Shown: positions 8,166 to 31,313 of the stretch, one piece after another | Layout: each line of letters begins with the position of its first letter | Numbering within the stretch: position 1 is the stretch's first letter | NCBI GenBank assembly: GCA_016700015.1 | Contig: CP064995.1 | Span: 60,001-92,000, forward strand | DNA from: Candidatus Saccharimonadota bacterium | Lineage (GTDB): Bacteria > Patescibacteriota > Saccharimonadia > Saccharimonadales > Saccharimonadaceae | Direction: 5' to 3' | DNA: 32,000 nt | Notes under the pieces: model-generated | What the model was told of the DNA's origin: nothing | Seen by the model: the letters and a program-made list of their open reading frames with translations, nothing else | Database searches by the model: none | Position numbers and translations under genes: made by a program

Positions 8166-8446
8166 GAGCCGGTAAACGGGTTTGTCCTTCCTGCCGGTAC
8201 CTCAAGCGGCTTAGCTTCACTCGTCGTTTTGCTGAGTTTTTTAACACGTTCCATTGTTTTCTGGTCAAAGACTGCAGTTGATTGGGAGTTGGGGATATCG
8301 GTGTTTGAGCTAAGCGTTTGATTAAGCATAAAGGTGGCGACCGATAAACCACCGACGACAGTGAGCACAAACACTAGTACATGGAAGCGATGTAGAAAAT
8401 GTGTGAGCAGAGCGCCAATTTGACTGATAGAAATAGATGATTTCAT
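8162..8446 (-). CDS. Small single-pass membrane protein in the pilus operon
   Basis: 94 aa with one TM helix (VLVFVLTVVGGLSVATFML). It overlaps the pilO-like stop (TAATG) and the PRC gene start (ATGA). No known domain. Confidence 0.5.
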   Translation of the reverse strand: MKSSISISQIGALLTHFLHRFHVLVFVLTVVGGLSVATFMLNQTLSSNTDIPNSQSTAVFDQKTMERVKKLSKTTSEAKPLEVPAGRTNPFTGS

Positions 8447-10672: not shown

Positions 10673-10732
10673 TGGTGCCCACTAATAGAATTTCTCTCCT
10701 GTATAGTATAGCATGAGCAGGATAGAAATACT

Positions 10733-11962: not shown

Positions 11963-11968
11963 GGTGGG

Positions 11969-16353: not shown

Positions 16354-16845
16354 ATGCAGGAGTTTAGTAAAGAAGAAACACTCAACTGGATGAGTGGAGT
16401 TGAAAAACGTATGTCCAGTGGGGCTGTCGCCTTGGTAACGAGCGACAATAAGGTGGTTGTTGTTAAGGCGCACTATAAAAAATACTGGTCATTTCCAGGA
16501 GGTGTCGTGGATGCGGGTGAAACACCGCGTGTGGCTGCAGCACGGGAAGTCGATGAAGAAGTGGGTATCGTTCTTGATCCTGGCCAGCTTGAATATAAAT
16601 TTGTTGTCGATCGTGTCAGTGACATAGCTCAGACGTATCAATTTGTGTTTGAGGCGACTATCGATGCGGCCCAATTCGGTCATCTGCGACCAGCGGAAGA
16701 TGAAATCGAAGAAATAGCGGTTGTATCACGGCAACAAATACAACATAATGACCGCTACTACTCGCAGTCCGCTCGCTTCTGGGCTTCGGGAGGTTCGGGA
16801 TATATAGAGCAGCAGTTTGGAGCTGGAGCGCAGAGCGACATCTAG
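16354..16845 (+). CDS. NUDIX hydrolase
   Basis: Nudix box GGVVDAGETPRVAAAREVDEEVGI. ATG 16354 lies 1 nt after the rny stop, whereas the track start at 16330 overlaps rny. Confidence 0.8.
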   Translation: MQEFSKEETLNWMSGVEKRMSSGAVALVTSDNKVVVVKAHYKKYWSFPGGVVDAGETPRVAAAREVDEEVGIVLDPGQLEYKFVVDRVSDIAQTYQFVFEATIDAAQFGHLRPAEDEIEEIAVVSRQQIQHNDRYYSQSARFWASGGSGYIEQQFGAGAQSDI

Positions 16846-17447
16846 GTTCTATTAAGGGCAACCTGGCCAAGTGGTTTTGCAACCACAACTACTCTCCCCG
16901 CTTCGGGACCGCTAAGCTCGCAGCTATAAAGTGTCAACTTGGCGTCTGATGTGCGTGCTTCTATCTCGGTGTGCTCTGGAGTAACTGTAAACAACTGATC
17001 GATTTCGTAACCAAAGCGCGTACCGTTGTAGTCGACAACGATTTTGTCACCAACCACTAGTTTATCAATTGAAAAAAATGGCGACTTCGTAACTGTTTCT
17101 CCAGGCGTTGGGGCGAGGGTGAAACGGTGAGCGGCAATGATAAAATTTCCACCCGATTCAGGATCCCCACGTTCAGGGTATCGCCACTGAGCGCCATGTT
17201 CAAGTGCTGATATGCCTTTTCCATAGACAACATTCACGCCAATTTTTGGGATAATAATCCTGTTTTCTGTCTTTTTTGGTGACGGCAGTGTATTGACGTC
17301 GATAGGCTTCGTGAATACAAGTGGCGCGATTGCGGGTGCGCCAACTAGCGATAGTAAGTAGCCACCTCCGCATAGTAATACAACAGCCAGAAGTGTTGCT
17401 ATGCGTCGAACCACGATTAAGTTACGTTCTCTCTTTATTTTAAGCAT
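16842..17447 (-). CDS. Sortase-family transpeptidase
   Basis: N-terminal TM anchor, His (IIAAHRF), Cys in TLYSCE (a variant of TLxTC) and Arg (GRVVVVAKP). The start is ATG 17447 (GGGG Shine-Dalgarno 4 nt upstream) or 17468. The track start at 17570 overlaps the subtilisin gene. Confidence 0.8.
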   Translation of the reverse strand: MLKIKRERNLIVVRRIATLLAVVLLCGGGYLLSLVGAPAIAPLVFTKPIDVNTLPSPKKTENRIIIPKIGVNVVYGKGISALEHGAQWRYPERGDPESGGNFIIAAHRFTLAPTPGETVTKSPFFSIDKLVVGDKIVVDYNGTRFGYEIDQLFTVTPEHTEIEARTSDAKLTLYSCELSGPEAGRVVVVAKPLGQVALNRT

Positions 17448-17499
17448 ATTACCCCTATGGTTACCCATAGTATATCCGATTACAAGATAGCTGGCAACT

Positions 17500-19332
17500 T
17501 TATTTCGAAAACAATATATATGAAGGTGATAGTCGAGAGCCCTGCATAGCACGTACCGACCACTCACCATTCTGCAGCAGAGAACCCGACCACTGCCATC
17601 CTGTCATTCCGCCGCTGTCGCTAAGCGAATAGGGGAGGAAGCGTTCGAAACCCTGGCTGTTTGTAAAGCGTATCGTACAGTAGCTGCTAGCAGTCACAGT
17701 GCAGCCACTACTCATTGCGGCACCAGTCGAGAAGCTATGTTCAGAACGGTAGTCTCCGGTTTGCAGCAGTGTTGGTGAGATACCGGCCGTACTGTTAAGT
17801 GACGCGGCAATCGTCATACCGGTATTGCCATTGACTAGACCGTGGCCATACTCATTGGTATATGTAGCACTATTCATTCCAGCTACTTTTACGGCGCTTC
17901 CATCGATAAGTGCGGTAATTTCGTCAGCTGTTGCAGAAGGGCGAAACGACAGAATTAGTGATGCCAGACTAGCCACAAGTGGTGTCGAGAATGAAGTACC
18001 ATAAAGGCTACCGGAGTAAGCGCTCGTGTAGTTGAAGGTTGCGGGATCATTTGGCGTTGCTCCTCGACTAATGAGGGGTGAAACAATAGCCCCAGAACCT
18101 GGAGCAACAACATCAAGTCCGGGGCCATAACTACTGAATGTTGCTCGTACATCATTGGCATCTGATGCGCCTACTGCGATAACGTGACTATAAAGGGCAG
18201 GATAGCTCATTGCACCGGGCTTCGAAGGGTTGCAGCCGTTTTCACTACCAGTGCCGCAATTACCGGCTGCGGCGACAATGACAACTCCGTGGCTATAGGC
18301 ATAATTAATGGCCGCTTCCATTGCGCTATCTTTCGTATCTCCGCCAAGACTCATACTAATAATCTTTGCACCATTATCGACCGCATAGTAAATTGCTGCC
18401 ACGATGGTACTTGTCCAGCCGCTGCCGTCATCGCCAAGTACTTGCAGTGGCATAATTTTAGTGTTCCAGTTGAGACTAGCAATTCCCTTGCCGTTGTTGG
18501 TGGTAGCCCCAACGAGTCCTGCAGTAGAAGTCCCATGAGAAACAGCGACGAATGGATCTCCAAGGTTACTCCCAGAACAGGTCTGCTGTTCTTGATAGTA
18601 GATGTCATCACCAGACTGTCCGGCTTGGGGATTATTATTTGTAGCATAGCTACCCACACCATCTGGGGCACATGGATTGCCGGTGGTCTGGTACCGACCA
18701 TAGAAGTTCCAGCCTCTCCAATCATCACTATAGCCATTATTGTCATCATCACAGCTGTTCGATGATTTGCTGACACTCACGCCAGTCCAGCAGTGATCAC
18801 TAATTTGTGTCATGCCCGATTCGCCAGGGTTAATGTACCACTGTGAAGCCAGGTCCTCATGCTGCAACGCAAACCCGGTATCAATAACCGCTACTACAAC
18901 GGGCTCTCCAGTTGTGTTTGACCAAACACCCGGGGAACCCATATGGGTCAAGGCCCATGGTGGGTAGAGAGTGCTAGTATAAAAAGGATCGTTTGGGGTT
19001 GTAAGTGCTCTATAGGGGTATTCAGTAGTAATATCAGATACAATGGCAGCTTGCTTTGGCGCTTCAGCGTAAGTGGTGTCAGGTGAGCTGTATCGTGTGG
19101 ATGTAGCAGGCTCTGTAGTATGAGAAGAAGGCGAAGCGGGTAAGTCTGGTGTGGCCTGTCCACTGGTTGTACCTACAACACCACCGATGCGTTGCGAAAC
19201 ACTGATGGGAGATGTTGGAATAACCGGTGACTCTGACTTACTGGTATGTACCAAAGTAGTATAAATAACAAGTCCCGCCATAAGTGCGATACAGAACGAC
19301 GTTATTACTATGAGCGAAGTGTTGGTTTTCAT
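17500..19332 (-). CDS. Subtilisin-like serine protease (S8), membrane-anchored or secreted
   Basis: Catalytic triad Asp (VAVIDTGF), His (HGTSTAGLV) and Ser (GTSFSTPLVASL). It has a Ca-site-like DDDNNGYSDDWRGWNF, an N-terminal signal anchor, a Pro/Ser/Thr linker and a C-terminal domain of about 100 aa. Confidence 0.9.
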   Translation of the reverse strand: MKTNTSLIVITSFCIALMAGLVIYTTLVHTSKSESPVIPTSPISVSQRIGGVVGTTSGQATPDLPASPSSHTTEPATSTRYSSPDTTYAEAPKQAAIVSDITTEYPYRALTTPNDPFYTSTLYPPWALTHMGSPGVWSNTTGEPVVVAVIDTGFALQHEDLASQWYINPGESGMTQISDHCWTGVSVSKSSNSCDDDNNGYSDDWRGWNFYGRYQTTGNPCAPDGVGSYATNNNPQAGQSGDDIYYQEQQTCSGSNLGDPFVAVSHGTSTAGLVGATTNNGKGIASLNWNTKIMPLQVLGDDGSGWTSTIVAAIYYAVDNGAKIISMSLGGDTKDSAMEAAINYAYSHGVVIVAAAGNCGTGSENGCNPSKPGAMSYPALYSHVIAVGASDANDVRATFSSYGPGLDVVAPGSGAIVSPLISRGATPNDPATFNYTSAYSGSLYGTSFSTPLVASLASLILSFRPSATADEITALIDGSAVKVAGMNSATYTNEYGHGLVNGNTGMTIAASLNSTAGISPTLLQTGDYRSEHSFSTGAAMSSGCTVTASSYCTIRFTNSQGFERFLPYSLSDSGGMTGWQWSGSLLQNGEWSVRAMQGSRLSPSYILFSK

Positions 19333-20196: not shown

Positions 20197-21684
20197 ATGA
20201 AGCGATTTCTCAAACGAACTATGCGCCATGTGAATACAAAGAACCTTCCTTACATGATCGGTTGCGTTGCGGCGGTTGCGATGGTAGCGAGCTTGTTTAT
20301 TGGAATGAAGCAAAGTGTTTGGTTCGACGAAGCATATTCAATACTCGTGGCCCGCCACTCGCCATCGGAAATCATCTCACTCACTGCCGTTGATACTCAT
20401 CCCCCTGCTTACTACTTACTCCTTCATGTATGGGGTGCTATGGTGGGATGGAACGAATTTGCACTGCGCAGTCTGAGTGTTCTCGCTTACGGAGGCTCAA
20501 TCTTTGTCGCTGGGCTCTTGGCGAAACGACTGTTTGGTACGCGCGCAGCAGTGATAACAAGCATCTTTCTGCTCATGGCGCCCCTGTTGATGCGCTATGG
20601 ATTCGAAATAAGAATGTACGCACTTGCGTCGCTAATAGGGGTACTCGCAACGCTATGTCTAGTTGCAGCTCACGAGTCGCCAAGGAAGTGGTGGCTCTGG
20701 GTACTATATGGCGTTCTAGTTGCAGTGGGAGTTTATACACTCTACTACCTCGCCCTACTCTGGATTGCCCATCTCGTATGGCTGCTATATATTGACCGCA
20801 AGCAACGTCAAACATTTTGGCGACAGTCTTGGTTGTGGTCCTACGCAATAGGAATCGTGCTCTTTCTTCCTTGGCTGCCAACATTCCTTAAGCAGGTCAA
20901 TAACGGTGCTCTTGCGAGCATTGGCCAACCGATGAATTTCGAACAGCTTATCGGTATCGTATCGTTTAACGCACTTTATAAGCCATTATGGCAGATCTCG
21001 GTGCTTGAAACACCGCTAATGCTATACGTACTGGTGGTAGGGTGTTGGTTTGTTGCTCGTGCTTACAAAATGCAGCGTAGTACGAAGTATCTAACGCTTC
21101 TTTTGCTTTATATCGGTGTTCCCGTGCTTGTGCTGGGTGTTGTATCGCTGTTTCGACCGATGTATGTTGAACGCTATTTGTCGCATGTTGCCGTAGGTCT
21201 TGTCATGTTGGTAGCGTGTTCGGTTGCAATTGTGTGGTCATATGATCAATCGCGACGTGTCGCTGCCATGAGCGTGTCTTTCTTTCTGATTATGGCACTT
21301 GGCACACTTCAGCTTATGAATGTCGGCAACTTCAATTTTCAGCGCATGGAGCACCCGAAGGTAGACGAAGTCACTGTTTCGATACCGTCATGTCGGTCTA
21401 CCGATACCGTGGTTGCTGCTGATCCCTATGTAGCAACCGAGCTGTCATACTATTTACCGGCATCATGTCGTATGTTGTTCTATAGCGATACCGCCGAACT
21501 TGGCGGTGGTTACGCACCCTTTTCTTATAGTGATAGGCGGCTGGCTTCGAAAAACTTGCCTTTAGTAGGGCAAAACATGTGGTATGTGTACTATGGACAG
21601 CCGCAACTGGTGCCAGACACTTCGTATCGACGCACAAACATTAGTACTCTTGGCACACTGACGGTCACTCGCTATGAAAAATAA
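20197..21684 (+). CDS. GT-C membrane glycosyltransferase, family 39 / PMT_2 (ArnT/Pmt-like), copy 1
   Basis: More than 10 TM helices. The first loop has VWFDEAYS (DE motif) and HPPAYYLLL. A soluble C-terminal domain is present. Confidence 0.75.
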   Translation: MKRFLKRTMRHVNTKNLPYMIGCVAAVAMVASLFIGMKQSVWFDEAYSILVARHSPSEIISLTAVDTHPPAYYLLLHVWGAMVGWNEFALRSLSVLAYGGSIFVAGLLAKRLFGTRAAVITSIFLLMAPLLMRYGFEIRMYALASLIGVLATLCLVAAHESPRKWWLWVLYGVLVAVGVYTLYYLALLWIAHLVWLLYIDRKQRQTFWRQSWLWSYAIGIVLFLPWLPTFLKQVNNGALASIGQPMNFEQLIGIVSFNALYKPLWQISVLETPLMLYVLVVGCWFVARAYKMQRSTKYLTLLLLYIGVPVLVLGVVSLFRPMYVERYLSHVAVGLVMLVACSVAIVWSYDQSRRVAAMSVSFFLIMALGTLQLMNVGNFNFQRMEHPKVDEVTVSIPSCRSTDTVVAADPYVATELSYYLPASCRMLFYSDTAELGGGYAPFSYSDRRLASKNLPLVGQNMWYVYYGQPQLVPDTSYRRTNISTLGTLTVTRYEK

Positions 21685-23218
21685 TCGGCGCTCATTGACA
21701 AAGCTTGATATTGCTCTACTAGGTTCTGGACTCGCGGTGACATCGGTGCTCAGCATTGGTAACATGACGCGCTGGTCAGTATGGTTCGATGAAGCATTTA
21801 GTGCGATGATTGTTCGCCATAGCTTCATCGATATCGCTCGCTACACGGCAAATGATGTTCATCCGCCACTTTACTACTGGTTACTAAAGCTTTGGACGAT
21901 GGTGTGGGGTCATTCACCACTAGCACTTCGGTCGCTTAGCCTCGTGTTACTGTTGGTTGCAATGACAGTCGTTTTTGTGTTTGTTCGGCGTGTATTTGGG
22001 CGCCTGGCTGCAGTGGTTAGCTTGCTGCTCATTTCTATCGCACCCATGCTTATTCGCTATAGCGAAGAGGCGCGCATGTATACGATGACGTTGGCAATCG
22101 TTGTTGCCGCAACATCTGTTCTTTACGAAGCCACTCGTCGTCCTACTCGACGCAAATGGTTGCTCTACGGGATACTGGTCGGGGTGGGGACTGTCACTCA
22201 TTATATGACGCTTATCATGTGGGCATCACATTGGTTGTGGCGTTGGTATGAGGTACGGCAGGTGAGCTTACGCGGTCAACTAAAAGCGTTCTTTTCGCCC
22301 GAGTGGCGCCGGGCGCTGCTCGTCACACTAGGGGTGGTTGCACTTTGGTTACCACTGCTACTGTGGCAGGTTATCAACATACAGGGTGGAGGATTTTGGA
22401 TTGGTCCGGTATCGGTGGATACGCTGTCGAACTATTTGACGAATCTTTACCTGTACTACGATCACCACCAGGTCTTTAGTTGGCTGGCTGTTGTGCTACT
22501 GGCGCTCATTGCGCTGACTGGCGCGCTTGCTCCTGTCGCCTACCGTCAACTCGCCAGTGAGGAGCAGCGAGGCTATCGACTGATTATCTCTATGGCATTT
22601 TTGCCACCAGTCATTCTGATGTTAGGCTCTCTCCCTCCTCTTAGGCCCGCATTTGTTGATCGCTACATTCTCGCAGCAATCTTATTCTGGTCGGTATGGG
22701 TTGGTATAACCTATGCTATATTGCTACGCAAAAGTGGCCGACAACAAAAACTAGTTGCGGGTATGCTAGCCGCAACAATGGTGATGAGTGTTATGGGTAT
22801 TGAGCATGTCTATGCGATTGGCAACTATAACAAAGATAACAATAGTCCGCACACTGTCCGAACGATTATGGAGCTGGTAGATCGCGAGACAATGGGCGTA
22901 GAGCCGGTCGTTGCAGAGTCCTCCTGGCTGTTCTTTGAGGTGGCATACTATGAAACGGCAAAGAATCCAACATTCTTCCGCTCTGAAGACAGCACGAAAA
23001 TTGGTGCATATGCAATGCTTCGTGATGATGCCAAACGTAAGATTGTGAACACTGAATTATTCACCAAGGATTACGATAAATTGTGGCTTGTCGTCCGTAA
23101 AGACTCTATTCCGACGATGTCGGCAAGTTTCAATGGCTGGCGCATCACGAGAATATTGCAGACTAACACAAAATCATCAGAACTACGCGCGGTAGAAATG
23201 CGACGCTCTGGTGTTTAG
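21674..23218 (+). CDS. GT-C membrane glycosyltransferase, family 39 / PMT_2, copy 2 (tandem paralog)
   Basis: Same architecture as copy 1, with VWFDEAFS and HPPLYYWLL. Its start overlaps the end of copy 1 by 11 nt. Confidence 0.75.
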   Translation: MKNNRRSLTKLDIALLGSGLAVTSVLSIGNMTRWSVWFDEAFSAMIVRHSFIDIARYTANDVHPPLYYWLLKLWTMVWGHSPLALRSLSLVLLLVAMTVVFVFVRRVFGRLAAVVSLLLISIAPMLIRYSEEARMYTMTLAIVVAATSVLYEATRRPTRRKWLLYGILVGVGTVTHYMTLIMWASHWLWRWYEVRQVSLRGQLKAFFSPEWRRALLVTLGVVALWLPLLLWQVINIQGGGFWIGPVSVDTLSNYLTNLYLYYDHHQVFSWLAVVLLALIALTGALAPVAYRQLASEEQRGYRLIISMAFLPPVILMLGSLPPLRPAFVDRYILAAILFWSVWVGITYAILLRKSGRQQKLVAGMLAATMVMSVMGIEHVYAIGNYNKDNNSPHTVRTIMELVDRETMGVEPVVAESSWLFFEVAYYETAKNPTFFRSEDSTKIGAYAMLRDDAKRKIVNTELFTKDYDKLWLVVRKDSIPTMSASFNGWRITRILQTNTKSSELRAVEMRRSGV

Positions 23219-24282
23219 CGGGGAATGATTTTTCTTATAAGCGGCAGTCGGATGACTCCACAGGTAAGCAAGACGGTTGCGAGCCCGAGCACAGTATTGA
23301 GCAGCCAATCATTCGACTTCACAAACAAAATGGTTGCTATGCAAAGGATAAGCCCATGGACAATATACGCAGTGAGCGAGTGCGTACCGAAATACTCTAC
23401 AATGCCGAACGTATAGCGCGACAAGTAGGATGTAATACGGTTAAAAAGTAGGATCAGAGAAGTAAACCAAATACCAGTTAGCAGTAACCGAGCTGGCATA
23501 AACGGTTCGGCCGAGAAGATGCCGTTGACTTCTGATGAATGGGGGACGATTGTCGGAAAAAATATATAGATTACGGAACAGACTAGAAAAAACGCGCCAA
23601 TGACGAGGGTGCCTATTTCGGCGAACTGGCGCCTCTGCACTGTAAGGTTGGCCCACCAGTGCCGTATCTTATCGAGGTAAAAACCAGCGATAGCCGGTAT
23701 GAAGAAGAGAATTTGCCACTGCATCCACTCGCTACCAAGCCCAAAGCCACAAATGTAGAGTAGTACCGATATGACACCAAGGAGCCGTACGTAGTTATTG
23801 CGTAGCAACCATACGGCGCCAATGGCAACAAATAGGAAGATGGCATAGAGCGCTAAAAAGTGGATCCACACGTGGGGCATTTGGAGTGTAATAAGTCGAT
23901 GCCACATATACGGCCAGTTACCGACTGGACTGTCAAACCATGGCAGCGGACCAATGCCAGAGTACCAGGTGATAGTGGCATAGACAAGCGTCATAATGAC
24001 TGTCCATATATAGAGAACTGCTGAGCGTGCAAGTAGTTTTTTCGCGATGACAGGGAATGGGGTTGCCAGACCCTTATATCCCCGTACATAGCCGACGAGT
24101 AGGCCAGATATCATGACGAAGCCTTCGGCAGCGGTCACCCATAGACGACCGGTGCCAGTAATCAGCGCCCAAAAACTCGGGAACCGGTCGAGATGATCAA
24201 TAATAATAACCAGTACAAAATATCCACGCAAGTAATCGAGTGCTAGGAGGCGACTGGCGCTGGAATGGGCCTTCTGAAGCAT
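23215..24282 (-). CDS. Integral membrane acyltransferase (acyltransferase_3 / OpgC-like)
   Basis: N-terminal LALDYLRGYFVLVIIIDHL signature and about 10 TM helices. I prefer the start at Met4 (24282), which has TATAAT 7 nt upstream. The track ATG at 24291 overlaps that -10 box. Confidence 0.65.
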   Translation of the reverse strand: MLQKAHSSASRLLALDYLRGYFVLVIIIDHLDRFPSFWALITGTGRLWVTAAEGFVMISGLLVGYVRGYKGLATPFPVIAKKLLARSAVLYIWTVIMTLVYATITWYSGIGPLPWFDSPVGNWPYMWHRLITLQMPHVWIHFLALYAIFLFVAIGAVWLLRNNYVRLLGVISVLLYICGFGLGSEWMQWQILFFIPAIAGFYLDKIRHWWANLTVQRRQFAEIGTLVIGAFFLVCSVIYIFFPTIVPHSSEVNGIFSAEPFMPARLLLTGIWFTSLILLFNRITSYLSRYTFGIVEYFGTHSLTAYIVHGLILCIATILFVKSNDWLLNTVLGLATVLLTCGVIRLPLIRKIIPR

Positions 24283-24289
24283 GGTGTCC

Positions 24290-24295
24290 ATTATA
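24290..24295 (-). promoter_or_regulatory. -10 box TATAAT, 7 nt upstream of ATG 24282
   Basis: The reverse complement reads TATAAT-ggacacc-ATG. The box overlaps the track-predicted ATG at 24291. Confidence 0.45.
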
Positions 24296-24323
24296 GCAAA
24301 GGATACTTGTAGCAGCGGGAGAG

Positions 24324-24329
24324 TATAAT
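24324..24329 (+). promoter_or_regulatory. -10 box TATAAT, 6 nt upstream of the bcp ATG 24336
   Basis: TATAAT-agtact-ATG, with no Shine-Dalgarno. Confidence 0.45.
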
Positions 24330-24335
24330 AGTACT

Positions 24336-24800
24336 ATGAACAACACCCCTCCATACCCAGCACCATCCTTTACTCTTAAAGACGTAGATGGCAGACTTCA
24401 CTCACTCGAAGATTATCGTGGCCAGTGGATCGTGCTATATTTTTACCCCAAGGATGATACCCCGGGCTGTACTATCGAGGCCTGTGGTTTCCGTGATATG
24501 AGCAAAGCGCTTCTTGCAAAGAAAGCGTCTATAATCGGCGTGTCACGTGATGAACCGGCGTCTCATGCAAAGTTCCAAGCTAAGTACTCGCTCGGCTTCA
24601 CACTCCTTTCTGATCCGGATCATAGCGTGATGGATCGATATGGCGCTTGGGGGAAGAAGATGTTTGGGCAAGATGGTGTATTACGCAAGACGTTTATCAT
24701 TAATCCTTTAGGCGAGGTCGTAAAAGTCTATGGGCGCGTTACCCCAGTCGGTCATGCCGAAAAAGTTGTGGCTGAGCTCGAGCGTCTCCAGTCTATTTAG
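24336..24800 (+). CDS. bcp: Thiol peroxidase Bcp (peroxiredoxin)
   Basis: YFYPKDDTPGCTIEACGFRD with the peroxidatic Cys. The length and overall pattern are Bcp-like. Confidence 0.9.
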   Translation: MNNTPPYPAPSFTLKDVDGRLHSLEDYRGQWIVLYFYPKDDTPGCTIEACGFRDMSKALLAKKASIIGVSRDEPASHAKFQAKYSLGFTLLSDPDHSVMDRYGAWGKKMFGQDGVLRKTFIINPLGEVVKVYGRVTPVGHAEKVVAELERLQSI

Positions 24801-25522
24801 CGAGGTCGTTTTGCTGCAGCTTGTCGAGCCGCTTCTGCCAAGTGATCATCGATAACTTGGGGGTGATAGGTGCCAAACTTCCTTAAAATAGCTTTTTCGA
24901 TCAGATAATCAGCCACTGCTGGGTTTTTGGGTAGTAGTGAACCATGCAAGTAAGTTCCAATTACGTTTCTATACCACGCCCCCTCAGTCCCATCGCTGCC
25001 GTTATTGCCTGCTCCTTTCACTACTCGGCCGAATGGTTTGGCACGCGCGCCAAGTGTTGTTTTGCCGCTATGGTTTTCGTAGCCTATGATTGACCCAAAG
25101 ATTTCGTTTTCAGTGACAATATTGCCGATCATACGCTCGTCGCTCCCATGCGTTTCAACATCGAGCAGACCGATACCCCGTAGTGTGACGCCGTCTTTGG
25201 TTTTGAAAAAGTGTCCGAACTGCTGGTAAAGGCCGCAGATGACGAGTATTGGTACATCATCTTCGGCAAGATCAACTAGCTTTGGGCCAATTTTCAGTAA
25301 GTCTTCACTAATCTTTGTCTGGCCGCTGTCCTGCCCGCCACCACCAATCACCAGGTCAACTACTTCAGGAAATTCATCACCGGGATTGTAGGTCATTACG
25401 TTTACGTTATAGCCGTGCCATTCGAGCCGGCGCCTAAGTGTGAGGGTATTGCCCCAATCGCCATAGATATTCATATCACGCGGGTAGAGCTGTAGAAGGT
25501 TGATGGTATTGTCGCTACTCAT
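24797..25522 (-). CDS. gatD: Lipid II isoglutaminyl synthase, glutaminase subunit GatD (CobQ-type GATase)
   Basis: Nucleophile Cys in VICGLYQQFG and His in TYLHGSLLPKNP. An ATGA overlap joins it to the murT stop. Confidence 0.85.
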   Translation of the reverse strand: MSSDNTINLLQLYPRDMNIYGDWGNTLTLRRRLEWHGYNVNVMTYNPGDEFPEVVDLVIGGGGQDSGQTKISEDLLKIGPKLVDLAEDDVPILVICGLYQQFGHFFKTKDGVTLRGIGLLDVETHGSDERMIGNIVTENEIFGSIIGYENHSGKTTLGARAKPFGRVVKGAGNNGSDGTEGAWYRNVIGTYLHGSLLPKNPAVADYLIEKAILRKFGTYHPQVIDDHLAEAARQAAAKRPR

Positions 25523-26799
25523 AGCACCGCCTCAACTTTTGTGCGCTTTCCGAGCTCGCGCCGGATAGCAAGCATTGCCGTGTACGTACAGTAAATTCGT
25601 TTCGGTTTGTCCATGTAACTATCGATCAAAAAGGCTAGTCCAGTGGCCAAATTCTCATCGACCTGGCGAAAATCCACCTCATCATATTGGAGCCGAAGGG
25701 CCATGTCGTAGGCGCGCACTCCACTAACCACACTGACACCTGTTTCTTTCAAGCTCGTGAAGTCAACATCCCACAGCCAGCTCATGTCACGGCCATCAGC
25801 ATAGTTGTCGTTAATTGCGATCATTGTTGCGTACCCATCTGGGTCAAATGATTTGAGGCTAAGACGAAAGCCAGCAGGGTTTTTTACGAGTACTAGTTCA
25901 CAAGCATTGCCGTTTATCGTCACTGATTCTCCACGACCAAATGCTGGCGTGACTGACTTTAGGGCAGCCAGCATGGCTGGTTCATCAAGATTATCAGCCA
26001 TAATCATTCGGGTAAGAGCCACGGCGCCGACGGCGTTTTGGACATTATATATTCCATTGAGCGCTAAGTCGATCGCATGATGTTTGCCATCGTAACTAAT
26101 AACTGCATGAGTGCCGTCTATCGAGTCAAGGTTGACATCATCAATTTTTGAGCCTGTCATGCCGGTTGGGGAAGACGCCTCGTGAAGTTGATCGTCAGAA
26201 GGGAAATGTGTGAGCAGGTCGGCGTGTACTCCATATGTACGCACTGGGACAGAGATCGCTTTTGTAAATGACGGATTACCGAGCCGGGGGTCATCACGAT
26301 TAATTACTACGCCGCCCTTTGTATGCAAGGCGACGGTGCGTAAGAGCTCTGCTGTCTTGTCAATTTCTCCAAAGCGATCGAGTTGGTCGCGCATGACATT
26401 GAGGAAGAGGCAGTAGGTTGGAGCTATCGACTGAGCAAAAAGTACGGCATAGGCTTCGTCAAGCTCGAGAACGGCAATATCAGCATGGAGTTTGCCTCCT
26501 GCGTCGACTTCACCAAGCAGGGCTGCTGCAACGCCTCGGGTAAAGTTGCTACCAGTTCGGTTGGTGAATACGCAGAGGCCTTGGCTTTCGAGAAGTTCAA
26601 CAACCATTTTAGTTGTTGTCGTTTTGCCATTGGTACCGCTAATGACGATAATACCACGAGGGAGTTGCATGAGTGTGCGGCGAATATAGCCTGGGTCAAT
26701 TTTTTCAACGAAAAGCCCAGGTAGCGCTGAGCCCCCACCGCGCAGCTGCGCCAGTGAGCGTACCCCTTTGCCGAGAACAGTCGTAAATGCTTGCTGCAT
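25519..26799 (-). CDS. murT: Lipid II isoglutaminyl synthase, Mur-ligase-like subunit MurT
   Basis: P-loop ISGTNGKTTTT and a DUF1727-type C-terminus (INDNYADGRDMSWLWDVDF). The start is either the track GTG at 26817 or, as I prefer, ATG 26799, which has TATACT 6 nt upstream. Confidence 0.85.
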   Translation of the reverse strand: MQQAFTTVLGKGVRSLAQLRGGGSALPGLFVEKIDPGYIRRTLMQLPRGIIVISGTNGKTTTTKMVVELLESQGLCVFTNRTGSNFTRGVAAALLGEVDAGGKLHADIAVLELDEAYAVLFAQSIAPTYCLFLNVMRDQLDRFGEIDKTAELLRTVALHTKGGVVINRDDPRLGNPSFTKAISVPVRTYGVHADLLTHFPSDDQLHEASSPTGMTGSKIDDVNLDSIDGTHAVISYDGKHHAIDLALNGIYNVQNAVGAVALTRMIMADNLDEPAMLAALKSVTPAFGRGESVTINGNACELVLVKNPAGFRLSLKSFDPDGYATMIAINDNYADGRDMSWLWDVDFTSLKETGVSVVSGVRAYDMALRLQYDEVDFRQVDENLATGLAFLIDSYMDKPKRIYCTYTAMLAIRRELGKRTKVEAVL

Positions 26800-26805
26800 A
26801 TACTT

Positions 26806-26811
26806 AGTATA
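26806..26811 (-). promoter_or_regulatory. -10 box TATACT, 6 nt upstream of the murT ATG 26799
   Basis: The reverse complement reads TATACT-aagtat-ATG. Confidence 0.4.
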
Positions 26812-26843
26812 GCGCACCCATGGTGTATTGAAGCAGGCTAGCG

Positions 26844-26849
26844 TACAAT
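26844..26849 (+). promoter_or_regulatory. -10 box TACAAT, 6 nt upstream of ATG 26856
   Basis: TACAAT-agggct-ATG, with no Shine-Dalgarno. Confidence 0.45.
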
Positions 26850-26855
26850 AGGGCT

Positions 26856-27239
26856 ATGGTTATTGTGGGCCTGGTCTGTTGGTGGTATAGCGCAGGATGG
26901 AAGCGTCGTATTGAGGTAGCCAAGGAGCAATTTGTTAGTCTGTACGATTACTTCTCAATTGATTTACTGGTGCGCACGTGGTTTTCGCCCTTTCGTCAAA
27001 TTTCAGCTGGTACGGTGCGGGGTCCGCTCGGCATTCAGTTGAGAGCATGGTTTGACCGACTGATCTCACGGGCTGTTGGTGGTGTTATACGTACTATCGT
27101 CATCATTTTTGGCGTTGTTACACTAGCACTCTCATTTCTGGTTGGTATTCTGACGGTTATTATATGGGCGCTTATACCCATGTGCCCTATTATTGGTGTT
27201 GGTCTGATGTTGGCGGGATGGATTCCATGGCACATTTAG
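26856..27239 (+). CDS. Small hypothetical membrane protein (127 aa), coupled to the Clp-like ATPase
   Basis: Hydrophobic N-terminus and two C-terminal TM helices. TACAAT lies 6 nt upstream of the ATG. The 3' end overlaps the next gene by 13-22 nt. Confidence 0.55.
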   Translation: MVIVGLVCWWYSAGWKRRIEVAKEQFVSLYDYFSIDLLVRTWFSPFRQISAGTVRGPLGIQLRAWFDRLISRAVGGVIRTIVIIFGVVTLALSFLVGILTVIIWALIPMCPIIGVGLMLAGWIPWHI

Positions 27240-29668
27240 ACTACGATTATCACTTGCTAAGGGCTCAAAAGGCTAGGCTTTTGATAAGGCTTGGCGCTGG
27301 CATGGTTACCATGCTCGCCTGGTTGTGTGGGGTAATGGTAGTTGGCGGCATAGGCCTGCTAGTCATAGCACAGCCTGTTGGTTGGCTCGTACTCGGGTTT
27401 GCCGCACTGCCATATATGGTGGTTACATGGTTTTATCATGACCTCCGTCATTTACCAACCGGGAAGGGCGATACAGTGACAGACATTTTGTCTGGCGATA
27501 TTCTTGGACAACTGCCAGCAAAGCCAACACCGCTTGATATCGCCAATGCGACGGGGCGTACGGTGAGTGGTCAGTTTATGACGATACGATTTGGTATTAC
27601 ACCAACAATGCTCCAGTCACTCGCTAGTAATGATCCGGCCGCTATGCAACAATTTTGGCAGGTGGCTGATCTGGTGCGAGCGAAAAATGGTTTGCAACAT
27701 ATCACGGGTAGCGTGCTCGCGGTTGCCCTAATGCGAAGCTTTGCGGACTATGAAAGTCTGATCGCTCAAATTCATCTTGACGACAACGACCTAGACAGGG
27801 GTATACAGTGGCAGGATCACCTTCGTCAGCTAATTGCAAAACATACTTCCCCAAGGCGTACGGGCGGAATTGCACGAGACTGGTCATTTGGCTACATCCC
27901 GCTCTTGACACGATTTGGTCATAATATCAGCGAACAGATCGGTCGAGGGAGTGGCATTTTAACGGTTGACGTGGCTTCTCACACGCAAGCGATCGATCTG
28001 CTGATCGACACTTTTAGTACAGGGGGGCGCCAGAACGCAGTACTTGTCGGTAGCGAAGGCGCTGGTAAAACAACAATCATCCATGCCTTTGCTGAGCGCT
28101 TGCTCGATGCGAATGCTGATCTACCCGACACACTCAAGTTTCGCCAAGTGTTCATTCTTGATTCAGCGGCTCTTATTGGCGCGGCACCTGGGCGTGGTGA
28201 ATTGGAAGAGTTGGTGATGCGCGTGCTAGGCGAGGCTTATAGCGCAAAAAATATTATCATTTGTCTCGACAATGCTCAGTTGTTTTTTGAAGAAGGTATT
28301 GGAGCGGTAGATCTATCAAATGTATTGCAGCCGATCCTGGATGCTGGTAACCTGAGGGTCATTTTATCCATGGATGAACAGCGCTATCTACAGATTAGTC
28401 AGCGAAATGCTACGCTTGTTAATTCGCTTAATCGTATCAATGTGGCACCCGCCGATCAGACCGAAACGATGGTCGTGATGCAGGAGCAGTTGATTTACAC
28501 TGAAATCCAAAGACACGTTACCTACATGTACCAAGCGCTCAAAGAAGCTTACCGGCTTGGTGAGCGTTATGTTTATGATCTTGCGATGCCCGGTCGAGCG
28601 ATTCGTCTACTTGAAAGTGCGGCTGCGTACCACGAAAATGGGATCGTCACTATGAACTCGGTGCAGCAAGCAATCGAAAAAACACTTGACGTAAAGGTGA
28701 GTGTGGCAAGTGCGGCCGAAGATCGTGAGAAGTTACTTAATTTGGAAGAGCTAATTCATAAACGCATGGTCAATCAGTCGCGAGCGGTTAGTGTAGTTAG
28801 TGATGCACTGCGACGAGCGAGAGCGGGTGTGCGTAATCAAGATCGCCCAATAGGCACCTTTCTTTTTCTAGGTCCAACGGGTGTTGGTAAGACGGAACTT
28901 TCAAAAGCACTCGCCGATGTCTATTTTGGCGGTGAAAATCGCATTGTACGGCTTGATCTCAACGAATTTGTGCGTGCCAGCGATGTGGCGAGGCTAATCG
29001 CTGATGGCGCAACAGATGCATCTAGCCTAACGGCACAAATGATGAAGCAACCATTTAGTGTTGTTTTGCTCGATGAAATCGAAAAAGCGGCGCCAGAAGT
29101 TCTAGCCACGCTACTACAGATGCTCGACGAGGGCATACTTCGTGACGAGAAAAACCGTGAGATCAGCTTTAGAGATGCAATCGTTATTGCTACTAGTAAT
29201 GCGGGTGCGGATCGAATTCGTGAGTATATTGAACGGGGCTATGAGGTTGCGCAATTTGAGACAGATTTTGTGAATGAGCTTATTTCTACCAACCAGTTCC
29301 GTCCTGAATTTCTTAATCGCTTCGACGAGATTGTTGTGTTTCGACCCTTCACCAAGGAGGAGCTGGTGCAAGTGCTCGATCTTATCCTCGCCGGTGTTAA
29401 TAAAACACTGGCCGCACAAAAAGTCTCGGTCAGTGTAGCGGCTGAAGCCAAGCAATTGCTTGTTGAAAAAGGATATGATCCACGATTGGGTGCTAGGCCT
29501 ATGCGCAGGGTTGTGCAAAAGGCGGTTGAGAATACTGTTGCAAAGCAAATGCTCAGCGGTCAGGTAAAGCCTGGAGATACTGTCAACGTTACTTTGGCGC
29601 AGGTGAAGGAAATCTTTGACAAAGACAAAACCATAAAGCAGATAGTAGAGTCATCGAAGAATACATAG
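27227..29668 (+). CDS. Membrane-anchored double-AAA+ Clp/Hsp100-like ATPase (atypical)
   Basis: Two N-terminal TM helices. D1 has Walker A GSEGAGKTT and Walker B IIICLDNAQ. D2 has GPTGVGKTE, VVLLDEIEKA, IATSN, EFLNRFDE and GARPMRR. The start is ATG 27227 or 27218; the track start at 27164 is less likely. Confidence 0.8.
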   Translation: MAHLDYDYHLLRAQKARLLIRLGAGMVTMLAWLCGVMVVGGIGLLVIAQPVGWLVLGFAALPYMVVTWFYHDLRHLPTGKGDTVTDILSGDILGQLPAKPTPLDIANATGRTVSGQFMTIRFGITPTMLQSLASNDPAAMQQFWQVADLVRAKNGLQHITGSVLAVALMRSFADYESLIAQIHLDDNDLDRGIQWQDHLRQLIAKHTSPRRTGGIARDWSFGYIPLLTRFGHNISEQIGRGSGILTVDVASHTQAIDLLIDTFSTGGRQNAVLVGSEGAGKTTIIHAFAERLLDANADLPDTLKFRQVFILDSAALIGAAPGRGELEELVMRVLGEAYSAKNIIICLDNAQLFFEEGIGAVDLSNVLQPILDAGNLRVILSMDEQRYLQISQRNATLVNSLNRINVAPADQTETMVVMQEQLIYTEIQRHVTYMYQALKEAYRLGERYVYDLAMPGRAIRLLESAAAYHENGIVTMNSVQQAIEKTLDVKVSVASAAEDREKLLNLEELIHKRMVNQSRAVSVVSDALRRARAGVRNQDRPIGTFLFLGPTGVGKTELSKALADVYFGGENRIVRLDLNEFVRASDVARLIADGATDASSLTAQMMKQPFSVVLLDEIEKAAPEVLATLLQMLDEGILRDEKNREISFRDAIVIATSNAGADRIREYIERGYEVAQFETDFVNELISTNQFRPEFLNRFDEIVVFRPFTKEELVQVLDLILAGVNKTLAAQKVSVSVAAEAKQLLVEKGYDPRLGARPMRRVVQKAVENTVAKQMLSGQVKPGDTVNVTLAQVKEIFDKDKTIKQIVESSKNT

Positions 29669-29725: not shown

Positions 29726-30565
29726 ATGGCGAATTGGGATACGATTTCAGGTAATGGGGATGTTGAAGATAGGCGCGGTACAACGCCAGCTATTGCTTTT
29801 GCGGGTGGCGGTGGGCTAGTCGTGCTACTTTTGACACTTGGATTAAATTTTCTTGGCCTCAATATCCCTCAATCAACAGTAGAGGATGTTTTAAGCGGCG
29901 TACAAGCACTTGGCACTACTCAAGCTACGCCTCAGGAGCAAGCAACTGAATTCCGCGGCGTCGACTCTTACGAATTATTCACGAAGAAAGTACTAGGAAG
30001 CACGAACACACTTTGGGATGGGGTTTTTGCGCAAAACAATTTGTCGTACATTCATCCAAAACTTGTGCTATTTCGCCAGGCTACGCAGTCGGGCTGCGGC
30101 GTTGCCACAACACAGGTTGGACCGCATTTTTGCCCGAATGACAGCACGATCTACCTAGACGAAACATTCTTTGATGAACTTCATACTCGGTTTGGAGCTG
30201 ACACTGGTGAAGTCGCTCAAGCTTACGTGATTGCTCACGAGGTTGGACATAATGTTCAGAATCAACTCGGAGCTTTTGATAATCGTGTCGCCCAGACTCA
30301 GCAGGGTTCAGTGGCTATCGAACTACAAGCAGACTGTTATGCGGGGGTATGGGCGTATTCGATTGCAAAACAGGGTGTGTTTCAGGGTAATGAAATTGAG
30401 CAGGCACTCGGCGCGGCTGCTGCTGTTGGTGATGATCATATCCAGCAAGTCGAAACGGGATATACCAACCCAGAAACTTGGACACATGGAAGTAGCGCTG
30501 AGCGCGTAGCTGCTTTCACAAAAGGCTATACAACGGGCAAGCCTTCAACGTGTCAGGGCTTTTAG
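29726..30565 (+). CDS. Neutral zinc metallopeptidase, YpfJ family, N-terminal TM anchor
   Basis: HExxH motif in AYVIAHEVGHNVQNQLG with a downstream ELQADCYAG. An AAGGAG Shine-Dalgarno lies 8 nt upstream. Confidence 0.8.
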   Translation: MANWDTISGNGDVEDRRGTTPAIAFAGGGGLVVLLLTLGLNFLGLNIPQSTVEDVLSGVQALGTTQATPQEQATEFRGVDSYELFTKKVLGSTNTLWDGVFAQNNLSYIHPKLVLFRQATQSGCGVATTQVGPHFCPNDSTIYLDETFFDELHTRFGADTGEVAQAYVIAHEVGHNVQNQLGAFDNRVAQTQQGSVAIELQADCYAGVWAYSIAKQGVFQGNEIEQALGAAAAVGDDHIQQVETGYTNPETWTHGSSAERVAAFTKGYTTGKPSTCQGF

Positions 30566-30568
30566 CGG

Positions 30569-31165
30569 CTACTCATTGTTATCATCAAGATTGACTTTGA
30601 TTGTGACGTAGACAGGTGAAGCGCTTGATGGATTTTCAAGAGTTGCTGGCATGTCATTTGGTGTCGCGGTACCATAGATAATCGTATCTTGCCAGTCCTT
30701 AGGGACTACCGAAACGCGCACGTATTCGTTCTGTGTATTTTTAAAGTGAAGCTGGCGAGCCATCCCACCATAGATATCTTCAAATTGGCTAAAACCTGCT
30801 GCCTTAAGCTTGGTCGTAAGGTCGGCAAAGGTATTGGCGGTCGTATCATTATGCCCATATTCAACGGTCGAAGCGTAGGTTCGTGACTCGTCCCAACTAT
30901 AAATACGCTTGTCACCAAATACATCAGACTTTGCGACACGATATTCATCGCCCAGCTTTAGACTGTTATATATGCGCTCAATCCTATCTAGTCGAGACTT
31001 GTTGGTGTATGCGACCGATATGTTATGTATTGTGTAGGCACTGAGGCTAACAAGAATGAATAAAATAAATACGATAAATGCATAAACGACAACACTTTTT
31101 CTTAATAAAATGTGAGTATCGTTTGCCGAAAAGTGTTTTTTGCGGGTTAATTTTTTCTTTGCCAT
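30569..31165 (-). CDS. Hypothetical membrane-anchored protein (198 aa)
   Basis: The likely start is Met41 (ATG 31165), giving MAKKKLTRKK plus a TM helix, with an AAGGGGG Shine-Dalgarno-like element upstream. The extracytoplasmic domain has no recognised motif. Confidence 0.5.
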   Translation of the reverse strand: MAKKKLTRKKHFSANDTHILLRKSVVVYAFIVFILFILVSLSAYTIHNISVAYTNKSRLDRIERIYNSLKLGDEYRVAKSDVFGDKRIYSWDESRTYASTVEYGHNDTTANTFADLTTKLKAAGFSQFEDIYGGMARQLHFKNTQNEYVRVSVVPKDWQDTIIYGTATPNDMPATLENPSSASPVYVTIKVNLDDNNE

Positions 31166-31313
31166 GTAGCTATTTGCCCCCTTACTATTACCATAGTCGT
31201 TATGAAGGTAATATGCAACTGGTAGTTGTGCACAATGGGGCAATACCTCCACTTGTACCAATTTAGTGCAACGCACCAAGGACATTATGCACCACTATGG
31301 TATGATAGGGTGA

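Follow-up and report, generated by a model that had tools for sequence, protein, structure and literature searches.

A predicted membrane-tethered Clp-like ATPase without gripping loops, paired with a small membrane protein, in Saccharibacteria and other Patescibacteria

Results

Two overlapping genes encode a Clp-like ATPase and a small membrane protein

The window examined in this study is a stretch of 32,000 nt from a Candidatus Saccharimonadota bacterium (GCA_016700015.1, contig CP064995.1, positions 60,001 to 92,000), and it carries two overlapping genes on the + strand. The first (26856..27239) encodes a 127-aa small membrane protein, and its stop overlaps the start of the second gene (27227..29668) by 13 nt. 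The latter encodes a double-AAA+ protein related to the ClpB/ClpC protein-unfolding motors. The open reading frame of this ATPase runs from 27164 to 29668. A start at 27227 (M22) gives a protein of 813 aa, although the ATG at 27218 (M19) is an equally possible start that gives 816 aa, which is the length of the 99%-identical sequence P0001.

Pfam searches of the ATPase identified AAA_2 (1.3e-41), ClpB_D2-small (6.5e-24) and AAA_lid_9. A phmmer search of PDB sequences matched ClpB, ClpC and ClpA (E 1e-75 to 1e-101), with Thermus thermophilus ClpB (1qvr) at E 1.8e-101. An AlphaFold model (pLDDT 93.1, pTM 0.85) was matched by Foldseek to ClpC, ClpB, ClpC1 and ClpA with TM 0.82-0.86 and an rmsd of ~4 A over ~575 columns. 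However, the protein shares only about 30% identity with canonical Clp proteins and scores below every NCBIfam Clp equivalog cutoff, reaching 400.6 bits against a cutoff of 1232.1 for ClpB (TIGR03346) and 355.3 against 993.15 for ClpA (TIGR02639).

The original prediction held that this protein is a membrane-anchored Clp/Hsp100-like double-AAA+ ATPase with a degenerate D1, an intact D2, no pore-loop tyrosine in either tier, no M-domain and no ClpP-docking tripeptide. Each of these structural claims was confirmed by the profile, structure and family-wide comparisons described below. The prediction had not noted the membrane partner encoded just upstream, nor that the protein represents a large family found across Patescibacteria (CPR).

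A membrane hairpin and a divergent N-domain precede the ATPase body

The only stretch of the ATPase with Kyte-Doolittle hydropathy above 1.6 comprises residues 18-70 (nt 27278-27436), which AlphaFold models as two helices (residues 11-46 and 51-73). The predicted transmembrane hairpin has a short AQPVG turn, and basic flanks on both sides imply that both termini and the ATPase body are cytoplasmic. A TM segment is present in 372 of 375 full-length family members, even though the sequence itself is poorly conserved (3.09 bits).

The hairpin is followed by a divergent Clp_N-like helical N-domain (residues ~78-207, nt 27458-27847). Pfam does not detect Clp_N in the query, and Pfam and NCBIfam searches with the N-terminal 254 aa gave no significant hits. 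Nevertheless, hhalign comparison of the family N-domain with canonical Clp N-domains gives a probability of 96.2% and an E value of 2.2e-9 over 110 columns, precomputed Pfam annotation lists Clp_N in many members, and the Foldseek alignments to full-length ClpC span ~780 columns. Between the N-domain and D1 lies a family-specific linker motif, GGIARDWSFGYIPLL (nt 27863-27907; consensus GGI[GA]RDWxxGYTPxL), in which W219, G222 and L227 are near-invariant. With an entropy of 1.47 bits, this is the best-conserved segment N-terminal of D2.

D1 is degenerate whereas D2 retains its catalytic motifs

To assign the motifs of the two AAA+ modules we used the alignment to T. thermophilus ClpB. The D1 module (residues ~251-500, nt 27977-28726) keeps its Walker A motif, GSEGAGKTT (residues 275-283, nt 28049-28075). 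The Walker B segment ILFIDELH of ClpB aligns to IICLDNAQ, such that the DE pair is replaced by D348-N349 (nt 28268-28273). The Arg-finger segment ERRFQ aligns to NSLNR (nt 28415-28441), and the alignment also places non-canonical residues at the ClpB D1 'GATT' sensor-1 segment. The D1 pore loop AGAKYRGEFEERL of ClpB aligns to GAAPGRGELEELV (residues 318-330, nt 28178-28216), with KYR replaced by PGR. D1 is likely to be able to bind nucleotide but catalytically degenerate.

It is unlikely that these changes reflect a decaying paralogue. The motifs AAPGRGELE, CLDNAQ and NxLNR, as well as K281 of Walker A, are invariant among 120 close homologues. Across the family, the Walker A glycines are at least 90% conserved, the Walker B DE is kept in only 13/123 members, and Arg is essentially absent at the finger positions.

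The D2 module together with the ClpB_D2-small domain (residues ~501-790, nt 28727-29596) has complete catalytic motifs: Walker A (nt 28871-28897), Walker B (nt 29060-29089), sensor-1 (nt 29183-29206), the Arg finger with R698 (nt 29303-29329) and sensor-2, GARPMRR (nt 29489-29512). These motifs are 100% conserved in close homologues and invariant or near-invariant in an alignment of 123 diverse family members, with entropies of 0.07-0.77 bits. As the Arg finger acts in trans, its invariance is indirect support for an oligomeric ring.

The M-domain and the ClpP-docking loop are missing. ClpB residues about 409-521, corresponding to the M-domain, have no counterpart, whereas ClpA aligns in one stretch. 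In addition, no [ILVM]G[FL] ClpP-docking loop lies between sensor-1 and the Arg finger in any of the 123 family members.

The pore-facing loops of D2 are short, non-aromatic and variable

The two pore-facing loops of D2 lie within nt 28961-29038. The secondary loop, VRASDV, corresponds to MEKHSV of ClpB. The primary loop (residues 592-600, nt 29000-29026) reads ADGATDASS in place of GAPPGYVGYEEGG of ClpB, and is 5 residues shorter, acidic and lacking an aromatic residue. In position-specific motif tests, 65/68 canonical Clp proteins have the D1 aromatic motif and 67/68 the D2 motif, against 0/361 and 3/361, respectively, in three sets of family members, and therefore the absence of these motifs is not due to chance.

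Across the 123 diverse members, the two pore-facing loops are the most variable part of an otherwise highly conserved D2 (2.8-3.5 bits against a D2 mean of 1.48). Per-position entropy is 2.9-3.5 bits at residues 583-585 and 2.4-3.4 bits at residues 593-600, between the near-invariant flanking positions R575, D577, E580, L601 and P609. This result strengthens the proposal made in the original prediction that the protein works differently from threading unfoldases. In contrast, it argues against the alternative, also raised there, of a very specific client, as a client read by the pore loops should have left those loops conserved.

A small membrane protein is encoded upstream of the ATPase across the family

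The 127-aa product of the upstream gene has a long N-terminal cytoplasmic helix, a conserved loop, TWFSPFRQISAG (consensus TLFSPFRQISAG), a juxtamembrane helix and a C-terminal hydrophobic hairpin. The hairpin is inferred from hydropathy and from the topology of gene fusions, whereas AF2 drew it as one continuous helix (pLDDT 89). Searches against Pfam, NCBIfam and PADLOC gave no significant hit, Foldseek against the PDB gave nothing below E=1, and the 535 homologous clusters are all annotated as 'hypothetical'.

An HMM of this protein hits the ORF just upstream of the ATPase in all assessable family loci and in none of the canonical Clp loci that served for comparison (L008-L079). The corresponding ORF was also found in 73/74 metagenome loci and in loci L168-L171. 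In some members the two genes are fused. The partner is joined to the ATPase in 13 of 135 full-length representatives, including end-to-end fusions that keep all four TM helices (P0173, P0194 and P0235), and locus L080 carries a two-TM fusion. These fusions require a 1:1 stoichiometry and a same-side (cytoplasmic) topology. We considered that the small protein might be a single central 'shaft' in the ring pore, by analogy with FliJ or the F1 gamma subunit and as suggested by its helical-hairpin shape, but this is disfavoured because 1:1 fusions imply six copies per ring.

Phyletic distribution, gene neighbours and fitness data

The family forms a single clade separate from ClpA/B/C in an NJ tree (44/44 against 36) and is found across Patescibacteria. 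A scan of genome contigs with the whole-protein alignment picked generic Clp motifs and returned mostly canonical ClpB/ClpC, which we used as negative controls, whereas a scan with the linker motif returned only Saccharibacteria-level relatives. Literature searches found no prior description of the family.

The gene downstream of the ATPase in the window (29726..30565) encodes a YpfJ-type Zn-metallopeptidase, which raised the possibility of a split-FtsH arrangement. However, this gene is adjacent in only 5/64 Saccharibacteria loci and absent in other lineages, and this possibility was rejected. Other neighbours are murT and gatD in Saccharibacteria (46/55 and 50/52 loci), mraZ-rsmH-ftsL-ftsI directly downstream in 5/5 Parcubacteria-type loci, a MraY-family gene 4 nt downstream in locus L172, and LCP, sugar transferase and GT2 genes elsewhere. 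By a rough estimate, about 6/13 independent contexts contain such cell-wall or division genes, against ~35% expected by chance, and thus the neighbours give only a weak hint towards cell-envelope or division functions. No conserved third partner was found.

A role in defence was also considered. PADLOC gives a partial match of D2 to the ClpB-like Dodola protein DolB (2e-29), but this match covers only the generic AAA core, no DolA-like partner is present, and the small protein has no PADLOC hit.

Published Tn-seq data are available for the cultured saccharibacterium Southlakia epibionticum (PMC10633639, Tables S1/S2). The apparent orthologues SEML1_0700 (ATPase) and SEML1_0701 (127-aa partner) sit in the same MurT/GatD/OpgC synteny, although orthology here rests on synteny, length and Pfam coordinates rather than on sequence alignment. 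Both genes are called NE, NE, GD, that is, non-essential with a late growth defect, with read counts falling from 4124 to 1638 and from 258 to 51. The same genome encodes a ClpC-like ATPase with Clp_N and UVR domains (SEML1_0512) and ClpP (SEML1_0493).

Although non-essentiality, the 'broken' D1 motifs and the DolB match might point to a decaying paralogue or an accessory, defence-island gene with no conserved cellular role, this reading is very improbable and is largely refuted by the conservation data. The altered D1 motifs are themselves invariant among close homologues, D2 is under very strong constraint, and the family is listed as a 'core family' (PMC10633639, Table S1) and shows stable synteny.

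Discussion

Taken together, these observations lead us to propose, tentatively and without biochemical or structural data for any member, that the gene pair encodes a two-component, membrane-tethered AAA+ complex that is characteristic of Patescibacteria. The ATPase is a Clp/Hsp100 class-I derivative that most likely forms a hexamer at the cytoplasmic face of the membrane, with its Clp_N/D1 side facing the bilayer, although both the hexamer and its orientation are extrapolated from Clp/Hsp100 structures. In this model D1 binds ATP without hydrolysing it and acts as an assembly tier, and D2 is the only motor. The complex would not feed ClpP, as it has no docking loop, and would not cooperate with DnaK as ClpB does, as it has no M-domain. 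Because the pore loops are short, non-aromatic and unconstrained, we infer that it is not a processive polypeptide-threading unfoldase. Instead, the ATP cycle of D2 is probably converted into rigid-body movements that would be passed through the conserved N-domain/D1 linker to the membrane hairpin of the ATPase and to its stoichiometric (1:1) partner, although contact between the linker motif and the conserved loop of the partner is conjecture. The complex would therefore act on the partner, or on membrane-embedded or membrane-proximal clients bound at surfaces.

Non-aromatic pore loops do not strictly exclude translocation, and it remains possible, though less likely in our view, that the protein is a substrate-threading extractase or unfoldase for membrane proteins, analogous to FtsH or Msp1. 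Such an enzyme would grip clients with non-canonical pore residues or with help from the partner, and release them for refolding or for degradation by other proteases. Consistent with this view, the N-terminal anchor would point the Clp_N/D1 face at the membrane as in FtsH-type extractors, D2 is a complete motor, a Clp_N substrate/adaptor domain is retained, and the mild mutant phenotype is as expected for a quality-control factor. Moreover, a few members keep a partial GAPPGY-like D2 loop (P0238, P0222 and P0259), such that an ancestral or lineage-specific threading activity is possible. However, both primary pore loops lack aromatic or bulky aliphatic residues, D1 lacks a catalytic Glu, Arg fingers and the pore Tyr, there is no protease partner loop, and the D2 pore loops are the least constrained positions in D2, which is the opposite of every characterised threading AAA+.

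An ATP-dependent switch is a similarly unlikely alternative. The nucleotide state of the ring would gate or regulate the small membrane protein, for example as a channel-like or scaffold assembly of 24 TM helices, or would report cellular energy state to an envelope process. The strict pairing and 1:1 fusions, the appearance of D1 as a permanent ATP-binding site and the unconstrained pore agree with this idea, and Torsin and clamp-loader-type AAA+ proteins work as switches (PMC5425593). On the other hand, the TM hairpins of both proteins are poorly conserved in sequence, with only W104 and P108 conserved in the partner, which fits anchors better than a selective channel, and D2 keeps all elements of a fast-hydrolysing motor.

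It is more doubtful still that the protein tethers or modulates the canonical Clp system by co-assembling with ClpC/ClpP or recruiting them to the membrane. Saccharibacteria do encode a ClpC-like ATPase and ClpP (PMC10633639), and databases annotate the present protein as ClpC, but it belongs to a separate clade and has no ClpP loop, its invariant Arg finger and sensor-2 suggest homotypic rings, and nothing links it to clpC or clpP in gene order.

Among known systems, ClpC, ClpA and ClpB share the domain order (Clp_N, D1, D2, D2-small), the fold and identical D2 catalytic motifs. Like ClpA the protein has no M-domain, and like ClpB it has no ClpP loop, but it differs from these proteins in its TM hairpin, pore loops, D1 motifs, family-specific linker and membrane partner. 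FtsH also places an AAA+ ring at the cytoplasmic face through an N-terminal TM anchor, with its entry side towards the membrane. However, FtsH has one classical-clade AAA module with an aromatic pore loop and a fused M41 Zn-protease, and no Peptidase_M41 hit was found here. In type-II AAA+ proteins with one degenerate tier, such as NSF (D2) and PEX1/PEX6 (D1), that tier appears to bind nucleotide without hydrolysis and to serve assembly while the other is the motor, but there the active tier keeps aromatic pore loops and threads substrate.

A documented precedent in logic is Torsin, a Clp/Hsp100 relative without aromatic pore loops that is membrane-associated through an N-terminal hydrophobic segment and works with transmembrane cofactors (LAP1/LULL1), and for which a non-threading mode of action is presumed (PMC5425593). 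The resemblance is only functional; no specific homology beyond the Clp superfamily was shown. Torsin has a single AAA+ module, sits in the ER lumen and lacks its own Arg finger, which is supplied by the AAA-like cofactor, whereas the present protein has two tiers, is predicted to be cytoplasmic and keeps an invariant Arg finger in D2, and its partner is a helical hairpin with no AAA-like fold. A more speculative and rather improbable possibility is that six ATPase subunits and six partners form a lineage-defining machine with 24 TM helices that uses ATP to act on the membrane or on lipid-linked envelope and division machinery, as a bacterial counterpart of the Torsin principle that is perhaps tied to the unusual envelope biology of these ultrasmall episymbionts.

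Public databases currently label these proteins 'ClpC' or 'Clp protease ATP-binding subunit', which is probably misleading. The family is a core family of unknown function in Patescibacteria, a group that makes up a large share of uncultured bacterial diversity, and its apparent orthologues in a genetically tractable saccharibacterium already show a measurable fitness phenotype. Aromatic pore loops are regarded as central to how Hsp100/Clp motors work, and the only well-known parallel, Torsin, remains mechanistically unsolved. This large, ancient and strongly conserved bacterial family keeps a perfect D2 motor while leaving its pore loops free to vary, and tethers that motor to the membrane with an obligate partner. 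It would give AAA+ research a bacterial example of a non-threading Hsp100 derivative.

Identification of the ORF and its conserved motifs

The ORF at 27164..29668 (+) is real. With the start at 27227 that was chosen in the original prediction it encodes 813 aa, although an ATG at 27218 is an equally plausible start and the 99%-identical database protein (P0001) is 816 aa. Either start overlaps the stop codon (27237-27239) of an upstream 127-aa ORF. Pfam searches identified AAA_2 (residues 540-702, 1.3e-41), ClpB_D2-small (709-788) and AAA_lid_9 (414-498), whereas D1 gave only weak generic P-loop hits. NCBIfam scores were far below every Clp equivalog cutoff, with values of 400.6 against 1232 for ClpB and 355 against 993 for ClpA.

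To examine the motif assignments, we aligned the protein to ClpB (1qvr) and related solved structures by using phmmer (E down to 1.8e-101). The alignment places every motif where the original prediction had placed it. Specifically, KYR of the D1 pore loop is replaced by PGR, DE of the D1 Walker B is replaced by DN, the ERRFQ Arg fingers are replaced by NSLNR, and D2 GAPPGYVGYEEGG is replaced by AD-----GATDASS. The M-domain of ClpB (residues about 409-521) has no counterpart, while ClpA aligns in one piece. Kyte-Doolittle hydropathy exceeds 1.6 only in residues 18-70.

Predicted architecture

An AlphaFold model built on a 123-sequence family alignment is confident (pLDDT 93.1, pTM 0.85), and shows a long helical hairpin (residues 11-46 and 51-73), a helical N-domain (residues 84-207) and two AAA+ tiers. 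A Foldseek search of the PDB returned ClpC, ClpB, ClpC1 and ClpA as the best matches (TM 0.82-0.86 on the target, rmsd about 4 A over about 575 columns), and some full-length ClpC alignments span about 780 columns and include the N-domain. A profile-profile comparison of the family N-domain with canonical Clp N-domains taken from control loci gave 96.2% probability (E 2.2e-9), and precomputed Pfam assignments list Clp_N for many members. The architecture is therefore TM hairpin, Clp_N, D1, D2 and D2-small. Basic residues flank the hairpin and its turn is very short, which implies that the whole ATPase body is cytoplasmic.

Conservation of the unusual features across the family

Among 120 homologues of at least 70% identity, the degenerate D1 motifs are themselves invariant (AAPGRGELE, CLDNAQ and NxLNR), and D2 Walker A, Walker B, sensor-1, Arg finger and sensor-2 are 100% conserved. 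We consider it very unlikely that this is a decaying or defence gene. An exhaustive phmmer search of 1.84 billion cluster representatives gave a top 150 running from 60% down to 30% identity, and nearly all of these share the N-terminal TM segment and lack both aromatic pore motifs. The only canonical, TM-less Clp protein among them (P0269, 806 aa) has KHRG instead of KYRG in its D1 pore loop but a normal GYIGY D2 loop, and may be a CPR ClpC variant.

Position-specific tests were then applied to three family sets and to canonical Clp controls fetched by the same scan. The D1 aromatic-[RK]G motif was found in 0/120 close homologues, 0/123 representatives and 0/118 Parcubacteria-type sequences, compared with 65/68 canonical controls. 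Similarly, the D2 G-aromatic-x-G motif was found in 0/120, 3/123 and 0/118 sequences of these sets, compared with 67/68 controls. In the 123-sequence alignment, the D2 large subdomain averages 1.48 bits of column entropy and its catalytic motifs 0.07-0.77 bits, whereas the primary pore loop scores 2.95 bits. Per position, the two pore-facing loops (residues 583-585 and 593-600) reach 2.4-3.5 bits between near-invariant flanks. The pore lining is thus the least constrained part of the motor. A threading extractase that operates by a non-canonical mechanism is possible, but we consider this explanation unlikely.

No member of the 123-sequence set carries an [ILVM]G[FL] ClpP loop (0/123). The D1 Walker B is DN, DD, EN and similar, with DE in only 13/123, and Arg is essentially absent from the finger positions, while the D1 P-loop glycines are at least 90% conserved. 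The best-conserved family-specific element is the linker GGI[GA]RDWxxGYTPxL (1.47 bits).

A small membrane protein encoded upstream

The upstream ORF, 26856..27239, encodes a 127-aa protein with no Pfam, NCBIfam or PADLOC match. To determine whether this gene is generally associated with the ATPase, we built an HMM from seven such upstream ORFs. The HMM hits the ORF immediately upstream of the ATPase in every family locus fetched (the window and loci L001-L005, L007, L066 and L081-L087), although the L085 hit is weak, and hits none of the canonical Clp control loci L008-L079. It also hits 73 of 74 assessable metagenome loci, where the exception is a frameshifted assembly that still contains fragments, and all four additional Parcubacteria-type loci. 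The two genes usually overlap by 4-13 nt.

In one further locus (L080) the small-protein domain is fused in frame to the ATPase, and 13 of 135 full-length representatives are such fusions. In three of these (P0173, P0194 and P0235) the fusion keeps a hydrophobic stretch of about 85 residues, consistent with all four TM helices. The fusions argue for a physical 1:1 complex, and also require an even number of membrane passes in the partner, so that its N-terminal domain is cytoplasmic. The ATPase could be a nucleotide-gated switch or regulator of the partner, which we consider unlikely. The partner has 535 homologous clusters, all annotated as hypothetical proteins. An AlphaFold model (pLDDT 89) gives a long N-terminal helix (2-33), a conserved loop (TLFSPFRQISAG) and a long C-terminal helix running into the hydrophobic segment, and Foldseek finds no PDB match below E = 1.

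In Parcubacteria-type loci, one or two further small ORFs of 109-136 aa precede the partner gene on the same strand (L007 8218-8919 and the upstream genes of L169-L171). None has a Pfam hit, and one in L007 (8566-8919) has hydrophobic segments near both ends. The operon may be larger in these genomes. In L171, a 40-aa called gene (9766-9888) with a weak ClpB_D2-small hit lies ~1.2 kb downstream of the ATPase gene, and may be a remnant of a duplicated or decayed copy.

Distribution and phylogeny

Named members come from Candidatus Saccharibacteria/Saccharimonadales, 'Patescibacteria group', Parcubacteria DG_74_3 and Nealsonbacteria, although this range rests on the minority of sequences that carry names. 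Two members carry non-CPR labels ('Microbacteriaceae bacterium' for P0042 and 'uncultured Gammaproteobacteria' for L080), which probably reflect mis-binning or epibiont contamination of host MAGs. Alternatively, they could indicate members outside Patescibacteria. In an NJ tree of the D1-D2 core, calculated without bootstrap support, one bipartition separates all 44 sampled family members from 36 canonical Clp proteins. A few members (for example P0238) keep a GAPPGY-like remnant, which suggests descent from a canonical ClpC-like ancestor.

Genomic context

We also considered the genes that neighbour the pair. Within Saccharibacteria, murT and gatD are conserved divergent neighbours (46/55 and 50/52 loci, respectively). 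In the window, MurT/GatD (lipid II isoglutaminyl synthase; 24797-26817, -) is transcribed divergently from the pair, which begins at 26856 (+), with only ~40 bp between the start codons, and co-regulation is possible. In five Parcubacteria-type loci (L007 and L168-L171) the pair sits directly upstream of mraZ-rsmH-ftsL-ftsI(-murE), and in L172 it lies between mraZ-rsmH-ftsL and a MraY-family gene that follows 4 nt downstream, a possible link to the dcw cluster. Elsewhere the neighbours include an LCP protein, sugar transferases and CDP-alcohol phosphatidyltransferases. In general, these contexts suggest an envelope or division link, but by our rough estimate this is not clearly above chance and we treat it only as a lead.

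The downstream gene at 29726-30565 (+) encodes a YpfJ/KPN_02809-family neutral Zn-metallopeptidase (NF050010, 6e-84; Pfam Zn_peptidase, 1e-74) with a hydrophobic N-terminal segment (residues ~20-45), and is not a conserved neighbour (5/64 loci). A 238-aa ORF at 30569-31285 (-), with a central hydrophobic stretch that looks like a TM segment and no Pfam or NCBIfam match, is found next to the ATPase in only 8/57 related loci. On the other side, two tandem PMT_2-family (dolichyl-phosphate-mannose-type) membrane glycosyltransferases are followed by an OpgC/Acyl_transf_3 gene on the opposite strand (20197-23218, +), and a sortase gene (16842-17570) overlaps the 3′ end of a subtilase S8 gene (17500-19332) by ~70 nt (16842-19332, -), which may be a cell-surface protein processing pair. 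The window also carries a type IV pilus gene cluster (8446-13750, -) consisting of a PilB-like T2SSE ATPase (11969-13750), PilC/T2SSF (10733-11962), PilM (9614-10672), PilN (9057-9725) and an unassigned 204-aa ORF (8446-9060), and a separate pilin-like gene with an N_methyl motif is located at 4839-5231 (-).

Relationship to known AAA+ proteins and a possible mechanism

By fold and domain content the protein is a member of the Clp/Hsp100 class-I superfamily. However, it does not satisfy the defining criteria for ClpB (M-domain and score cutoff), for ClpA/ClpC (ClpP loop and score cutoff), for Torsin (a single tier with no Arg finger) or for FtsH (protease domain). Literature searches found no description of the family, whose members are called ClpC or AAA family ATPase in databases. 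We consider this departure from the known Clp/Hsp100 proteins to be of considerable interest.

D1 keeps its P-loop but lacks the catalytic Glu, Arg fingers and pore Tyr, whereas D2 has complete catalytic motifs, including a trans Arg finger, together with shortened and unconstrained pore loops. Without inspection of coordinates or of a modelled complex, we infer that the complex is a hexamer on the cytoplasmic face with the N/D1 side towards the membrane, in which D1 acts as an ATP-bound assembly tier and D2 as the sole motor. We further infer that the work is not processive threading, but conformational action passed to the membrane hairpins or partner, or exerted on surface-bound clients. 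This is the logic proposed for Torsin and its TM cofactors (PMC5425593). We favour this explanation over the alternatives, but only tentatively.

Fitness data from a cultured Saccharibacterium

Published data are available from a Tn-seq study of the cultured Saccharibacterium Southlakia epibionticum (PMC10633639, Tables S1/S2). SEML1_0700 ('AAA family ATPase') has Pfam coordinates equal to those of the window protein plus 4, and SEML1_0701 is a hypothetical protein of 384 nt, which is 127 aa. The pair lies next to MurT (0702), CobQ/GatD (0703) and OpgC (0704), the same order as window 23215-29668. Orthology is inferred from this synteny and from length and domain coordinates, rather than from sequence alignment. 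Both genes are called NE, NE, GD, and normalized reads fall from 4124 to 1638 for the ATPase and from 258 to 51 for the partner, which corresponds to a modest, concordant fitness cost when either gene is disrupted. The ATPase is flagged as a 'core family'. The same genome has a ClpC-like ATPase with Clp_N and UVR domains (SEML1_0512) and ClpP (SEML1_0493), both non-essential. The module is therefore an addition to the standard Clp system, not a replacement for it. A role for the module as a tether for ClpC/ClpP is a further possibility, although we regard it as quite improbable.
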